The position numbers and the translations under genes were made by a program. Positions 9,429 through 14,834 of a DNA stretch of 16,355 nt are shown piece by piece. The stretch is taken from NCBI GenBank assembly GCA_963768655.1, contig CAVYIM010000001.1, positions 1 to 16,355 on the forward strand, given 5' to 3'. The notes beneath the pieces were generated by a model. The model did no database searches, was not told the origin of the DNA, and worked only from the letters and a program-made list of their open reading frames with translations. Origin of the DNA: an uncultured Chloroflexia bacterium. GTDB taxonomy: Bacteria > Chloroflexota > Limnocylindria > Limnocylindrales > CSP1-4. Position 1 is the stretch's first letter, and every line of letters starts with the position of its first letter.

Positions 9429-10547
9429 CTATGCGTCGGTGGCGCCGACCGCGTCGCCCGACCTTGCGTTGGTATCTTCGCCCGTGGCCTCGCCCGTCCT
9501 GGGGACGACGATGCCGCCGGCCGAAGCGATCGTAGCGGCCTTGGCGGCCGGGGATGGGCCCGTGGTCTCCCGGGCCATAACCGCTGCCTGGGGCCGTCCC
9601 GACCAGCCGAGATGGGCCAGGGCAGCGACACCGCCGGCCGAGCTGACGAGGAGCGTCAGGACGTGCGTCAGCAGGGCCAGGGCCAGACCGCTGGAGGCCG
9701 GCAGGCCGAAGGCCACGGCGATCGTCTGGCCGGCGTATTCGAAAGTGCCCAGATAGCCCGGGCCCGACGGGATGGCTGTGGCAAGGTTCATGCCGGCGGC
9801 CAGCAGCGCCCCCTCGCCCACGGTCAGCTCGATTCCCAGGGCCTGCCCGACCGCCAGCACGGCCAGGACCGTGCAGCTCCACGCCGCCACGCTCAGGATC
9901 ACCGAAGCGGCGATCGTCCGCGGCAGGGCCGCGACACGCAGGCCGTCCCGCAGTCTCAGGACGATGCCCTTGACCCGCGGCCAGCGGCCCAGGAAGGCGG
10001 CCATCCGGCCGGCCCCGGGGAGACGGTGGGCGGCCAGCGCCACGGCCAGGGCCACCACCAGCAGCCCGGCCAGCGCCACGCCCACGAGGATCGCGCTGAC
10101 GACCACGCCCCGGATGTTGAGGACGAGGATGGCGATGGCCCCGATACCCACCAGCACGATGGTGTCGACGACGCGCTCCACGATCACAGTGCCCAGCGTC
10201 GCGCTGCGGCTGATCCCCTCGCGGTCCCCCAGGTAGTGGCTCCGGACGAGCTCGCCCAGGCGGGCCGGCAGGACGTTGTTGGCGAGGTAGCCGACGAGCA
10301 TGTAGCCGGAGAGGCGGCGCAGCGGCACGGGTCGAATAGGGGCGATCAGCTGCTGCCAGCGGAGCGCCCGGAAGACCAGGTCGGCCGTGACGCCGACCAC
10401 GCCCAGGCAGAGCCAGGAGAGCCGGGCGCCGCCCAGCAGGCTGGCCGTCTTGGCCAGGTCTACGCCGCGCAGGGCCAGGTAGACGCACAAGAGCGAGATG
10501 AGGATGCCGATGCCGCTCCGAGCGATGCCGGTGCTGAGGCGCCTCAC
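9429..10547 (-). CDS. Lysylphosphatidylglycerol-synthase TM / flippase-like (UPF0104) membrane protein
   Basis: RALRWQ, GYLANNVLPARLGELVR, VIVERVVD and IPSGPGYLGTFE motifs. GTG 10547 overlaps the GT2 stop (GTGA). Confidence 0.88.
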   Translation of the reverse strand: MRRLSTGIARSGIGILISLLCVYLALRGVDLAKTASLLGGARLSWLCLGVVGVTADLVFRALRWQQLIAPIRPVPLRRLSGYMLVGYLANNVLPARLGELVRSHYLGDREGISRSATLGTVIVERVVDTIVLVGIGAIAILVLNIRGVVVSAILVGVALAGLLVVALAVALAAHRLPGAGRMAAFLGRWPRVKGIVLRLRDGLRVAALPRTIAASVILSVAAWSCTVLAVLAVGQALGIELTVGEGALLAAGMNLATAIPSGPGYLGTFEYAGQTIAVAFGLPASSGLALALLTHVLTLLVSSAGGVAALAHLGWSGRPQAAVMARETTGPSPAAKAATIASAGGIVVPRTGEATGEDTNARSGDAVGATDA

Positions 10548-11416
10548 CGGGCCGTCGGCTTTCGGCTGGCCAGCTTTCGGGAGGGACGCAACCGCAATCG
10601 ATGAAGCAGGAAGCGCATCACCACCCGCAGGGTGGACAGGCCGTAGACCACGCTGTGTCGGAAGTTGACGGAGCTGGCTTCCTCGAAGTACCGGGTCGGC
10701 ACGGCGATCTCGCCGATGCGCATGCGGCACGCCACGGCCTGGGCGACGAGTTCCTGGTCGAACACGAAGTCGTCGCTGTTGAGCCGGTACGGGATCGTCT
10801 CCAGCAGGTGCCGGCTGTAGGCCCGAAAGCCCGTGTGGTACTCGGAAAGATGGAGGCCGAAGGCCGCGTTCTCGACGCCAGTGAGGAAGCGGTTGCTGAT
10901 GTACTTCCAGCGTGGCATGCCGCCCGCGAGCGGATCACCCAGGAAACGACTGCCCAGCATCAGGTCCTTCGTGCCATCGAGGATCGGCTCCACGAGCTCG
11001 GGAATGCGAGTGGCGTCGTACTGGTAGTCGGGGTGGAGCATGACGACGGCGTCGGCCCCGGCCTCGAGAGCCGCGTCGTAGCAGGTCTTCTGGTTGCCGC
11101 CGTAGCCCAGGTTCTGGCGGTGGATGATCACGTCCAGGCCGAGCTGCTGGGCGACGGCGACGGTATCGTCCCTGGAGACGTCGTCGACGAGGATGATCCT
11201 GTCGATGATCTGATGCGGGATGTCGTGGTAGGTCCGCTCCAGCGTCCTGGCGGCGTTGTAGGCCGGCATGACGACTACGACGTGCCTGGCATTCTTCGTC
11301 TCCGGGCCTGCGACGACGCCAATGAGCCATCCCCCTGTTCCGTGCGCACGAGCGTCAGCAGGTGGCTGGATGGTGTCGTCGATGGCGGACAGTAGTGCGG
11401 GCTCGTCCACCGACAT
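10544..11416 (-). CDS. GT2 glycosyltransferase, polyprenol/dolichol-phosphate mannose synthase (DPM1-like) type, intact copy
   Basis: VVMPAYNAA, ILVDDVSRDDT, NLGYGGNQKT, HPDYQY, GSRF and EYHTGFRAY motifs. Start is ATG 11416 or leaderless GTG 11410. Confidence 0.92.
   Translation of the reverse strand: MSVDEPALLSAIDDTIQPPADARAHGTGGWLIGVVAGPETKNARHVVVVMPAYNAARTLERTYHDIPHQIIDRIILVDDVSRDDTVAVAQQLGLDVIIHRQNLGYGGNQKTCYDAALEAGADAVVMLHPDYQYDATRIPELVEPILDGTKDLMLGSRFLGDPLAGGMPRWKYISNRFLTGVENAAFGLHLSEYHTGFRAYSRHLLETIPYRLNSDDFVFDQELVAQAVACRMRIGEIAVPTRYFEEASSVNFRHSVVYGLSTLRVVMRFLLHRLRLRPSRKLASRKPTAR
10881..11287. repeat. 407-bp direct repeat, copy 1 (GT2 5' half)
   Basis: Identical to 14353-14759 except T10913/C14385 (synonymous Pro codon); offset 3472 bp. 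Confidence 0.95.
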
Positions 11417-11862
11417 AGCCTATCGTAATGGGAGGCGCTGGCGCCATGAGCTCTACCGTTCGGTCAAGGCCCGTTCGAATGATGACCCGTGCGCCCCTCG
11501 ATTGACACATCCAAAGCCAGAAGACGGCCGTAATCGATGGCGGCCGAAGCATTCGGTAGAGAGAGACTTCTGCACCTGCAGCCATGCCATTCGGGCCGAG
11601 TGGATGTGGCTGGTAGTCGTGGTGACATCGGTCCGCCCGTGGCCCCAGCTCGCTCTCGCGATCGGAGTAGCCGTGTGGTTCGTCAAAGGGATGGAGCGCG
11701 ATGAGGACGAGGAAACAGAATCCGACCAGATGGGGCGTGTGCATCTACACCCCCTCGGCGCGATCGCCGAACCTTGGCACCCCGCATAGCAGCCGCGTCC
11801 GCTCGGCCCCGTTCCTCTGCCTTGAATGTCTCGATCCGGGGCAGCCAGATATGATGATTCGC

Positions 11863-12771
11863 CTACTTATCGGGCTGCTCGCTCTCGAGAACTTGACGGT
11901 CTAGCAGCGCCACCAAATCGGAGCGTTCGTCCGTAAACTTCCGAGCGAAGAGCATCGGGCCGGGGCCGTACACGTCGTTGGGCGAGAATTCGGAGTGCGT
12001 CCGCAGGAAGGTTATCTGTCTTTCCGAGATATCCGCCGGGCTCCGTCCCCCGGCGCTCCAATCCGTATAGGTGAGATTCCTGGCTACCCGCGACTTGAAA
12101 TCGGAGTTGCCAAGGATGGTCTGGAAGAACGACTCGTCGGGACAACGGGTGTGTTCGTGGAACCTGACCAGTCTGGCCTCCCGGTTGACGAAATCGAGGA
12201 TGTACTCGCACGCTTCCCGTGAGAGCGCCCACCAGGTGGAGCCGGCGTACGGAGCGAGATCGCCAAAGTCGGCCTTGTAGTCGCGTTCGCGCGGTAGAAC
12301 CCGGGCCATCATCAGCAGCCTCTGCGCGGCTCTGATTGGTCTTGGGGTCGTGGGACGCAGCTTGTAGTTGATGAGCCGGGATATCGGCTTGCCGGCTGTC
12401 TCCGAGGGCATCGACACCAGGTTGATGAACTCCGTTGTCGGGTTGTTCTCAAAGAAGCTCTCTATATAGGCGGCGGACCTGAGTGGGTAGTCGGCGCCGC
12501 TGAGCAGCACGAAGCGGTCGAAGCGACGTTCGTCGGCGAGCGCCGCCTGAATGAGCACTAGGATGGCTTCCACTTGGGAGAAGTCGCCCCAGTGGACCGC
12601 GACTCGCTTGTTGGTGAAGTGGACGTCGCCTGTGATGCCCGTGAAATGGGCCAGCCTGGACTTCTTGTCGACGTGGATGAAAAAGCGAGCCGAGCTCGTA
12701 GACAGCGCCGAAACCAATCGTTGGAGATGCTTTGGAGTGTTGTGGGTCAGGATCAGGTAGGCGATCTTCAA
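11863..12771 (-). CDS. GT14 / core-2-I-branching beta-1,6-N-acetylglucosaminyltransferase-like protein
   Basis: IAYLILTH, FFIHVDKK, VHWGDFSQVEA, LLSGADYP, GSTWWALS, PDESFFQT and LFARKF motifs. TTG start with GGAAGGTG upstream; visibly more AT-rich than the core genes. Confidence 0.9.
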   Translation of the reverse strand: MKIAYLILTHNTPKHLQRLVSALSTSSARFFIHVDKKSRLAHFTGITGDVHFTNKRVAVHWGDFSQVEAILVLIQAALADERRFDRFVLLSGADYPLRSAAYIESFFENNPTTEFINLVSMPSETAGKPISRLINYKLRPTTPRPIRAAQRLLMMARVLPRERDYKADFGDLAPYAGSTWWALSREACEYILDFVNREARLVRFHEHTRCPDESFFQTILGNSDFKSRVARNLTYTDWSAGGRSPADISERQITFLRTHSEFSPNDVYGPGPMLFARKFTDERSDLVALLDRQVLESEQPDK

Positions 12772-12879
12772 GGCACACCTTCCGGCGGGAGTCTTGAACC
12801 GCCCCAGGAATCAAGTGGAGACTCCTGGCTGCCCAAAGCCTCCATCAAAGCTCTATGAAAGGGAGCCGGCGATCAAGCT

Positions 12880-13027
12880 GGGCACCTCGCGACTAGCGAT
12901 GGCCAGATCACTTCAGGGCCCGGCGGACTGGTTGACGGATCGAGCAGCGCTCATCTCTCTATCGCCTTCTCTGTGAAGGACAAGGTTGATCGGAGGCTGC
13001 TCCGGCGGCCCAATTCCAGGAGGGTCG
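12880..13027 (-). ncRNA. Putative bridge/seekRNA in the IS 3' non-coding end
   Basis: Stem (12942-12948/12996-13002), internal loop and inner hairpin (12965-12969/12975-12979), at the position expected for IS1111-group guide RNAs. Boundaries are approximate. Confidence 0.55.
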
Positions 13028-14068
13028 TCAAGCGACCAGTTTGATAGCGGGGCCTGCCGGGGCGAAGGGTTCGTTCTTGACCAGCATGTGCCAGATGGCC
13101 TCGGCCAGCTGGCGGGCTAGGTTGACGCGGGCGACCTTGGAGCCGCGCTGCGGTCCGAGGCGGCGCTTGGTTCGTTCGTAGCGATCGTGAAAGCGGGGAT
13201 CTTGGGCAGCGTGGGTGGCCGCCTCGATGAGCGCCCAACGCAGATACCGCGGCCCGTGCTTGGACAACGGTCCGCGGAAGTCATGTTTGCCGGACTGGCG
13301 CACCAAGGGACAAAGACCGGTGTAGCTGGTGAGCTTCTTCGGGCTGGCGAAGCGGCCGATGTCGCCGATCTCAGAGGCGATCGTGTAAGCGGTCACCCAG
13401 CCGATGCCGGGCACGGTCAAGAGAAGCGGGATGTAGCGGTGGTCGGCGCCGAGCCGCCTCAGTTCGCGCTCAGCCAGATCAATCCGTTCGTCAAGGTCGT
13501 CGACCATGGCCAGGGTTGTTGTCAGAGTCGTTGCCCAGGGCTCCGGCAGATCGAGGCCGGCGAGCAGCTCGTGGCCCGACATTCCGAACAGGTCTGACAC
13601 TGGCACGGTGTGGCCGAAGCTCATGAGGGTGGAGTGGATGCGGTTCTTCAGCGCCGTGCGGTGATGGATGAGGTGCTGGCGAAAGCGGGCCCGCTCGCGC
13701 TCTGCGCGAACGCCTGGCGTCGGCAGCCAGATCTCGGGCACCAAGTCTCGGCGGGCGAGCTCAGCCAGGACGCGCGCGTCGATCTTGTCGGTCTTGGCAG
13801 CCAACGGTGCCAGGCCCTTCGCCCTCACGGGGTCGGCGATGGCGACGTCCCAGCCCCAGCGCTCGAGCTGGTCGTGGACGAAGCGTGCGCCCGTCATGGA
13901 CTCGATCGTCGCGCTGACCTCCTCACCGTGGGACAGGATCCGAGCCGCGAGCGTGCGCAGCGCGTCAGCGTCGGGGTGAACTGCCGTGACCTCGACGGTC
14001 TGACCCTCCTCGTCGAGAACATGCACGTCTACCCTCTGGCGCGACAGGTCCAATCCGACGTACAACAT
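13028..14068 (-). CDS. IS110-family transposase (DEDD RuvC-like recombinase)
   Basis: YVGLDLS (D), TIESMTG (E), KTDKIDA (DD), TVPGIG..TA..IASEIGDIGRF, GLCPLVRQSG (catalytic Ser). Intact 346 aa. Confidence 0.96.
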   Translation of the reverse strand: MLYVGLDLSRQRVDVHVLDEEGQTVEVTAVHPDADALRTLAARILSHGEEVSATIESMTGARFVHDQLERWGWDVAIADPVRAKGLAPLAAKTDKIDARVLAELARRDLVPEIWLPTPGVRAERERARFRQHLIHHRTALKNRIHSTLMSFGHTVPVSDLFGMSGHELLAGLDLPEPWATTLTTTLAMVDDLDERIDLAERELRRLGADHRYIPLLLTVPGIGWVTAYTIASEIGDIGRFASPKKLTSYTGLCPLVRQSGKHDFRGPLSKHGPRYLRWALIEAATHAAQDPRFHDRYERTKRRLGPQRGSKVARVNLARQLAEAIWHMLVKNEPFAPAGPAIKLVA

Positions 14069-14276
14069 GTCTGGAGCCCTCCCGGTGCTGGGTGCAAAGA
14101 CAGCCCAACAATGTCACCGGTGGGGCTCCCTTCATGACATTCCAGGGCGGTTCAGTCCTCATCAACTCGCATCTCTCGAATGTTTGCGTAGACGCGACTT
14201 CGAATACGAGCCACTCAGCAGTTGTTCCGGCGGCGCTCGCGTTCGGAACCACGACGACTGCGGTCCCCGTACGAGG

Positions 14277-14834
14277 CTATCTCGGACATCGATCAGCAGA
14301 TGTCAGAGGAGTAGATGCGCATGGAGAGGACGCGTCGCGGCCCATGAGGCTCGTGAGGAAGCGGTTGCTGATGTACTTCCAGCGCGGCATGCCGCCCGCG
14401 AGCGGATCACCCAGGAAACGACTGCCCAGCATCAGGTCCTTCGTGCCATCGAGGATCGGCTCCACGAGCTCGGGAATGCGAGTGGCGTCGTACTGGTAGT
14501 CGGGGTGGAGCATGACGACGGCGTCGGCCCCGGCCTCGAGAGCCGCGTCGTAGCAGGTCTTCTGGTTGCCGCCGTAGCCCAGGTTCTGGCGGTGGATGAT
14601 CACGTCCAGGCCGAGCTGCTGGGCGACGGCGACGGTATCGTCCCTGGAGACGTCGTCGACGAGGATGATCCTGTCGATGATCTGATGCGGGATGTCGTGG
14701 TAGGTCCGCTCCAGCGTCCTGGCGGCGTTGTAGGCCGGCATGACGACTACGACGTGCCTCCGGGCGGGCTCCGTCGACGTCTCGGCAGTTTCAGGGCTCT
14801 GGTCGTTGGCCGGCTGCGGCTTCTTGTCTGGCAC
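14277..14834 (-). pseudogene. 3'-truncated GT2 glycosyltransferase copy
   Basis: Different N-terminus, then about 135 codons identical in protein to the intact GT2, breaking after NRFLT into an unrelated tail. Lacks EYHTGFRAY and the C-terminus. Confidence 0.88.
14353..14759. repeat. 407-bp direct repeat, copy 2
   Basis: Base-by-base match to 10881-11287 with one mismatch. Confidence 0.95.

Follow-up and report, generated by a model that had tools for sequence, protein, structure and literature searches.

The 16,355-nucleotide stretch analyzed here (the window) comes from an uncultured Chloroflexia bacterium and is all of contig C1 (CAVYIM010000001.1) of a host genome with 9 contigs and 3.37 Mb (GCA_963768655.1). 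On its minus strand lies an insertion sequence with one transposase gene (tnp), and an earlier reading of the letters (the original prediction) had proposed that positions 12880 to 13027 encode a bridge RNA or seekRNA of an IS110-family element. We found support for such an RNA, with a fold that covaries and guides that track the flanks. The element is intact and of the IS1111 type, and it very probably encodes a two-loop bridge/seekRNA whose right-target guide lies in the tail of tnp. The structure rests on compensatory changes, and the guides on covariation with flanks and ends in relatives. The features of the element are as follows.

12851 to 14142, minus strand: whole insertion sequence, 1292 bp, with the shared core G counted once per end (14142 and 12851).
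13028 to 14068, minus strand: tnp, 346-aa DEDD transposase of the IS110 family, with an IS1111-type motif (GLCPLVRQSG) and Pfam domains.
14124 to 14136, minus strand: left subterminal inverted repeat CATGAAGGGAGCC; pairs with 12854-12867 if one extra base is allowed.
12854 to 12867, minus strand: right subterminal inverted repeat GGCTCCCTTTCATA, kept in relatives.
14139 to 14146, minus strand: left junction, with target CCTG (14143-14146), core G (14142), and element start AAT (14139-14141).
12842 to 12857, minus strand: right junction, with element end CATAGA (12852-12857), core G (12851), an extra C (12850), and right target TTTGATGG (12842-12849).
12871 to 12876, minus strand: -35-like box TTGATC of a candidate junction promoter, 17 nt before GAG.

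The tnp frame is open over 346 codons (minus strand, 13028-14068). Its product has the N-terminal DEDD (RuvC-like) domain and the C-terminal Transposase_20 domain of the IS110 family (Pfam PF01548, E 1.8e-20, residues 4-149; PF02371, E 1.1e-25, residues 215-298). For the IS1111 group, section 6 of PMC11187229 gives a transposase length of 330-350 aa and the motif GL-P----S(t)G; the protein in the window has 346 aa, and GLCPLVRQSG occupies residues 251-260. Two further IS1111 traits are present. One is a pair of subterminal inverted repeats within the 7-17 bp range, CATGAAGGGAGCC (14136-14124) and GGCTCCCTTTCATA (12867-12854), which match at 12 of 13 positions with one extra base. The other is a longer non-coding end downstream of tnp, with 177 nt on the 3' side (13027-12851) versus 74 nt on the 5' side (14142-14069). 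In the length and motif of its DEDD transposase, in its subterminal repeats, and in its long non-coding end 3' of tnp, the element resembles the IS1111-family elements ISEc11, ISPa11, ISKpn4, and ISPst6 (PMC11187229).

Relatives were gathered from genomes of the host's genus and class, one GTDB scan, and one metagenome scan, and the related loci belong to Chloroflexota, Candidatus Limnocylindrales. The collection amounted to 84 unique copies of the 3' region; in 57 of them guide and left flank formed a unique pair, and for 76-77 a right flank was available. L084, a locus of an unpublished genome, was excluded from every set, and loci with in-frame stops were omitted from the protein alignment. 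The structure alignment (A3) comprised 77 sequences and included 48 nt of coding sequence. The boundaries proposed originally, GAATG and CATAGA with the junction CATAGA-GAATG, agree with these data: in the first 11 related loci aligned, homology begins at GAATG(N)CATGAA and stops at TTTCATAGAG, and identical ends, GAATG and CATAGAG, were read in the 84 unique copies.

The RNA is predicted to begin about 33 nt 5' of the tnp stop codon, to run from about 13060 to 12942, and to form two separate loops. Its parts, in transcript order, are listed below.

12942 to 13060, minus strand: bridge/seekRNA core, 119 nt, target-binding loop followed by donor-binding loop; four helices in the 77-sequence alignment.
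13050 to 13060, minus strand: 5' arm of helix S1, CCGGCAGGCCC, inside tnp; pairs with 13002-13011 (97.3% paired).
13039 to 13047, minus strand: putative right-target guide CUAUCAAA plus a C pairing with the core G; overlaps tnp codons 341-344 (A-I-K-L).
13023 to 13037, minus strand: hairpin P0 (GGUCG cuuga CGACC), stem-loop of the target-binding loop; contains the stop UGA (13028-13030).
13013 to 13020, minus strand: putative left-target guide, CCUG plus core G plus AAU, 3' strand of the target-binding loop, based on identity and covariation.
13002 to 13011, minus strand: 3' arm of S1, GGGCCGCCGG (helix 1).
12993 to 13001, minus strand: 5' arm of P2, AGCAGCCUC, holding most of AGCCUCC (helix 3).
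12981 to 12992, minus strand: 5' strand of the donor-binding loop, CGAUCAACCUUG; overlaps the stretch at 12986-12998 that had been matched to the right flank.
12965 to 12980, minus strand: hairpin P3 (UCCUUC acaga GAAGG), stem-loop of the donor-binding loop (helix 4).
12953 to 12964, minus strand: 3' strand of the donor-binding loop, CGAUAGA-G-AGAU, putative guide for the right end and core; equals the element end (C)ATAGA-G.
12942 to 12952, minus strand: 3' arm of P2, GAGCGCUGCUC (helix 3).

Over the 77 sequences, 92.9% of the cells in the four helices were paired. Changes on both sides were seen in 13 of the 30 pairs, compared with 5.2 +/- 1.3 in shuffles, and 0 of 500 shuffles equaled this number; when the partners were slid by 1-3 columns as a control, pairing was 29-54%. 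S1 has 10 pairs, six of them compensatory, and P0 has five (97.9% paired, two compensatory) and was also predicted by folding. P2 was paired in 80.9% of the cells and P3 in 97.2%, with two and three compensatory pairs, respectively, one of those in P3 being UA in 47 sequences and CG in 26. The window copy retains the four helices and both ends. As in the seekRNAs of IS1111 elements, this conserved secondary structure places the guides in internal loops. The single-sequence fold of the 3' region was no more stable than shuffles (z = -0.93).

Of the structure drawn originally, the GAGCAGC/GCUGCUC stem and the CCUUC/GAAGG hairpin were confirmed, and the surrounding architecture had to be redrawn. 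The interval had been closed at 13027, about 33 nt short of the start of the RNA at 13060. The segment CCUGGAAU, placed originally in the loop of a small hairpin, belongs instead to an internal loop, as its 3' strand; the 5' strand and the closing stem of this loop lie upstream of the stop codon. Target and donor guides, thought to be mixed in one loop, fall into a target-binding and a donor-binding loop, which is the plan of IS621. When the upstream sequence was omitted, RNAalifold proposed that GGGCCGCCGG closes with a downstream segment, CCGCCGGGCCC (about 12916-12926); that helix was rejected, with 0 compensatory changes in 27 sequences versus 6 covarying pairs with the upstream partner. 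In the closest group, CCGCCGGGCCC (12916-12926) could possibly pair with the 3' arm of S1 as an alternative fold of a free 3' fragment.

The left junction recurs in the RNA, as the original prediction had seen. On the plus strand, ATTCCAGG stands at both 13013-13020 and 14139-14146 (CCTGGAAT in transcript sense), with 8/8 bases identical, and the agreement extends to the relatives. Among the 57 full-length copies, identity between guide and left flank at positions -1, -2, -3, and -4 was 0.93, 0.91, 0.82, and 0.60, versus 0.35, 0.38, 0.40, and 0.26 for non-cognate pairings, and no signal was found at -5 to -8. The mean matching run was 3.61, compared with 0.94 +/- 0.18 after shuffling, and 0 of 20000 shuffles reached 3.61. 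These copies carry 21 different left-guide 4-mers; the guide CCUG is limited to the window, where the flank is CCTG, and to the related genome G024. Several departures (L058, L073, L032) place a U opposite a bottom-strand G, fitting RNA-DNA pairing. In the two largest groups (AAT, ACT), the three bases that follow the core G repeat the start of the element; in a third group they do not (AGA vs. AAT). This extension, AAU in the window, runs 3 nt into the element's left end and is the only genuine mixing of target and donor guides that we found. From the identity and the covariation together, CCUG-G-AAU most probably reads the left target flank.

Two copies, L039 and L098, have a common right flank (CAGGATCGTGGCGAAGT) and different left flanks and guides. 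The guides of L039 match neither of its own flanks, which suggests a chimera-like product of recombination between two copies.

Because the C-terminal codons vary between relatives, the bases 5' of the stop-codon hairpin were compared with the right flanks. A signal appeared at a single offset only (77 unique copies). In 95-99% of the copies, the core G is paired by the base that stands nine positions ahead of the stop codon. The 6 nt next to this base show Watson-Crick complementarity to positions +1 to +6 of the flank (74-83% in cognate vs. 30-41% in non-cognate pairings), and the signal has faded by position +8. The mean number of Watson-Crick pairs was 5.78 of 8, compared with 2.99 +/- 0.16 in shuffles, none of which (0/20000) reached it, and 6 or more of the 8 pairs formed in 50 of 76 copies versus 6.8% of non-cognate pairings. 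We conclude from this that CUAUCAAA-C (13039-13047) is very likely the true right-target guide, inside the last tnp codons. The two residues preceding the conserved C-terminal LVA* differ widely among relatives, and since the guide coincides with codons 341-344, these tail residues differ in relatives that are aimed differently. It is rather likely, in our judgment, that the guide is dual-coding in this Limnocylindrales family, each retargeting rewriting two tail residues, with selection acting on RNA and protein together.

Another candidate for this guide, GAUCCGUCAACCAGU, the segment after stem P2, gave a weak signal (p = 0.02) that came from one subgroup with CCACGAUCC. It was dropped, as column-wise covariation was not seen and the stronger guide was found at 13039-13047.

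In the donor-binding loop, the segment AUAGAGA (12956-12962), proposed originally as a donor guide, equals the element end plus the first bases of the left end (CATAGA-G-A). In nearly all copies, the sequence of the 3' strand of this loop is (C/G)AUAGAGAG; the end of the element is CATAGAG. Changes of the end are mirrored in the strand in two lineages, L090 (CATAGAA) and L080 (CATAAAG), which argues that AUAGAGA reads the element's right end; for the left end, only the 3-nt AAU extension of the left guide was seen.

A single base is common to all these pairings. L090 has A instead of G as its core, in the left-guide strand, at the right end, and in the 3' strand of the donor-binding loop, and its right guide ends in U instead of C. 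Most targets of the family are palindromic, CACGATG-G-NNN-CATCGTG. In the host genome, the half-sites CAC[GC]AT and AT[GC]GTG occur 9 times at a spacing of 6 and 0-4 times at each of 24 other spacings, an excess that fits a target made of left flank, G, and right flank without any further duplication. The spacing of the empty palindromic sites and L090 both led us to reject a GA dinucleotide core with a 2-bp duplication, and recombination is most probably centered on one shared G. Of the nine palindromes CAC[GC]AT-N6-AT[GC]GTG, seven are on contigs C7 and C8 (301 kb and 98 kb), for example at C7:45492, C7:82011, and C8:82971 (G000).

Several observations weigh against this interpretation. Searched against Rfam 15 with E up to 10, the interval 12500-14500 gave noise matches only, and no empty site for the 14142/12851 insertion was found when its flanks were searched in 40 relatives. 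Left guides misfit in L039, L082, L027, L083, L100, L101, L103, and L128, and 9 of 76 copies form 3 or fewer of the 8 right-guide pairs in register, although a 2-nt shift lifts L152, L031, and L155 from 2-3 to 6-7 of 8. The right end is CATAGTG in L082, L126, L147, and L149, yet their donor guide keeps AGAG; three of these four share about 20 nt of apparent flank, which puts the boundary in this set in doubt. The 5' strand of the donor-binding loop shows no continuous pairing to the left end at offsets 1-8 and no covariation with right flanks. The shuffle tests ignore the kinship of the copies, and their counts are not probabilities. Finally, the window's own guide, CUAUCAAA-C, fits its right flank at only 3 of 8 positions in register. 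When C 12850 is skipped, it forms 7 Watson-Crick pairs and 1 G-U pair with TTTGATGG, and an equal fit to this guide was found in 1 of 75 other flanks, allowing any of five shifts.

Two extra bases (AG) stand between the CATAGAG end and the guide-matched sequence in L031, L032/L152, L155, L068, and L072, which suggests that crossover or slippage can happen inside the AGAGAG run.

The offset at the right junction is the main reason to consider that the guides are of the known type and the window copy is a stranded, inactive relic whose right junction no longer fits its guide. The element is present as one full copy in the host genome, and its neighborhood is rearranged, with a duplicated glycosyltransferase segment and, in G024, a tandem duplication. 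However, tnp is open, of full length, and has both domains, the four helices and both ends are intact, G024 has two copies that are 98.6% and about 100% identical to it, and a one-base bulge beside the core may be tolerated; we regard the relic as unlikely. Much less probable still is that the fold is an element of the 3' untranslated region with another role (stability, translational coupling, or a protein site) and that the flank matches reflect a site preference of the protein. The palindrome CACGATG...CATCGTG shared by most targets could also be read by a protein dimer. Against this, the guides vary in step with the flanks across at least 21 left 4-mers and many right 8-mers, also in copies off the palindrome (TATAC, CCTG, GAGT, GCCT), the G-U wobbles lie in the RNA-DNA direction (L058, L073), and RNA guidance has been shown experimentally for this transposase family (PMC11187229, sections 8-10).

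The original prediction had itself a different architecture: a hairpin loop would read the left junction, and one internal loop, departing from the two-loop plan of IS621, would combine the donor guide with a right-target guide, AGCCUCCGAUCAA (12998-12986). The match on which the latter was based is real, in that AGCCTCCGATCAA (12986-12998) agrees with the reverse complement of the right flank (12837-12848) at 12 of 13 positions with one extra base, and in local alignments of the window alone 1.5-2% of 5000 flank shuffles were as good. Scattered matches of this strand to right flanks also occur in relatives (8 nt in L028, 8/9 with a gap in L041), but they fall in different registers. Cognate and shuffled pairings with the right flanks score alike (4.36 vs. 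4.22 +/- 0.14, p = 0.19; p = 0.45 for the variable part), column-by-column scans revealed no covarying pair, and the distal right flanks of 76 relatives were not complementary to the stretch (mean z 0.02). Seven of its 12 matching bases, AGCCUCC, lie in a strand of helix P2 and are invariant in 27 of 27 rows of the closest group, whose right flanks are many and different. A far stronger right-target guide, CUAUCAAA-C at 13039-13047, was found upstream of the stop-codon hairpin, and CCUGGAAU belongs to an internal loop with a covarying closing stem, which leaves the one-loop architecture very little probability. The left-junction and donor matches, in contrast to this flank match, are far beyond chance across relatives.

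With gaps, the same flank match extends to about 20 of 25 positions (12826-12848 vs. 12986-13010) and covers the 3' arm of S1, the 5' arm of P2, and the loop strand. None such was found in 76 relatives, and the extended complementarity of 12826-12848 appears to be a local oddity.

For the two-loop RNA with its right guide in tnp, a mechanism can be proposed by analogy with IS621 and ISEc11. The element would excise as a circle, in which the GAG of the right end would join the AAT of the left end into GAGAAT (junction CATAGA-G-AATG). Sequence scans detected 0 sigma-70-like promoters and 0 intrinsic terminators in the linear element. In 81 of the 84 copies, a TTGA box (mostly TTGACG, TTGACC, or TTGACA) precedes the terminal GAG by 16-18 nt, and we infer that the circle junction completes a promoter (TTGAYC/TTGACN, 17 nt, GAGAAT). 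Junction promoters are known for ISEc11 and IS621, and the GAGAAT arrangement fits them (PMC11187229, PMC11208158). The RNA would be cut from the tnp transcript and then bound by the transposase, which would join the circle to a DNA site fitting both target guides. In loop 1, the 10-bp stem (13060-13050 with 13011-13002) would be followed by the right guide, the stop-codon hairpin P0, and the left guide, which would run 3 nt into the element's left end in a handshake-like manner. In loop 2, P2 and P3 would frame the donor-binding loop, and its 3' strand would guide the right end.

RNA-guided targeting by IS1111 elements and right-end bridge RNAs have already been published, and what is new here is this element (PMC11187229, PMC11208160). 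Right-end bridge RNAs were predicted for 93% of IS1111 elements (PMC11208160), and the seekRNAs of IS1111 elements map downstream of tnp (PMC11187229, section 8). In those seekRNAs, the match to the top strand lies 5' of the match to the bottom strand (PMC11187229, section 9), and the same order was found here, the right guide (top strand, 13047-13039) preceding the left guide (bottom strand, 13020-13017). Further likenesses to the seekRNAs and elements of PMC11187229 are that the segment complementary to the top strand comes first and the matches overlap at the insertion point, and that retargeting occurs naturally among close relatives. The host is a member of the Chloroflexota, whereas those elements come from Proteobacteria. 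In the present element, the last 11 or so codons contain the first guide and one half of the closing stem, unlike the elements as described in the text of PMC11187229, although this may be no real difference. The structure search of Durrant et al. took in 50 bp of 3' coding sequence (PMC11208160); no statement that a guide overlaps coding sequence was found in the text of PMC11187229 and PMC11208160 or in a library search, figures and supplements being outside this scope.

The RNA resembles that of IS621 in its two internal loops in series, the target-binding loop before the donor-binding loop, each built of stem, guide, stem-loop, and guide, with both DNA strands read and the core within the guides (PMC11208160, PMC11208158). 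The completion of the promoter across the circle junction, which we infer for this element, is another likeness (PMC11208160, PMC11208158), as is a short guide extension that matches the other DNA partner: AAU after the left-guide core and AG after the core of the right-end guide seem to resemble the handshake guides of IS621 (PMC11208158). The differences, by the same descriptions, are that the RNA occupies the 3' end of the element and not the 5' end (left, upstream of the recombinase), that the order of the loop strands is reversed, with the top-strand guide on the 5' strand, and that the core is a single conserved G in place of a CT dinucleotide. In addition, the left guide has about 4 nt plus the core, the extension is on the bottom-strand guide, and one donor guide was identified. 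The element works like IS621 but falls outside the IS621-type (IS110 group) bridge RNAs, because its RNA is at the 3' end, its core is G, and its strand order is reversed.

As the mechanism is already known, the finding is confirmatory and not surprising. It adds a natural and well-resolved case of RNA-guided recombination from the Chloroflexota (Ca. Limnocylindrales), a phylum that has been studied little, and dozens of natural retargetings show which RNA positions read which bases of the DNA. The left half-site is read by 4 nt plus the core, the right one by about 7-8 nt plus the core, and the core is a single G. An RNA annotation restricted to the non-coding end can miss a guide in the tail codons, which is relevant to the mining of IS1111 elements for programmable recombinases. 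Were the stop-codon hairpin and the stem in the coding region general in IS1111, published seekRNA maps that start after the stop codon would lack half of the target-binding loop.

Within its own genome, the element has the single full copy in the window and a 73%-identical relative on contig C8. This relative (L002, G000:C8:8479-9621) belongs to the group with a left end that starts with GACT, and its own left end is replaced or truncated. Elsewhere among the relatives, a second module of RNA plus right end is found in L025 (4507-4704, minus strand), tail to tail with the full copy of that contig and about 780 bp from it; a pattern search upstream of this module found no recognizable start of a transposase gene.

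Among 40 relatives the locus was found in G024 alone, where it is also occupied by the element. The two copies there, which we have mentioned for their identity to the window copy, are adjacent and appear to result from a tandem duplication, whose unit apparently consists of the element, a flank, a repeat, and 11288-12850. In the window, a 407-bp segment of a family-2 glycosyltransferase gene occurs twice with 100% identity (10881-11287 and 14353-14759), and the gene copy beside the element is the shorter one (14277-14834, 185 aa, vs. 10544-11416, 290 aa). The right flank at 12797-12813 is an inverted near-copy (15/17) of the left flank plus the element's first four bases (14139-14155). The two sequences are TGAACCGCCCCAGGAAT and TGAACCG-CCCTGGAAT, a likeness equaled by 22 of 3000 shuffles, and the near-copy is either a long imperfect target hairpin or a trace of an older inverted insertion.

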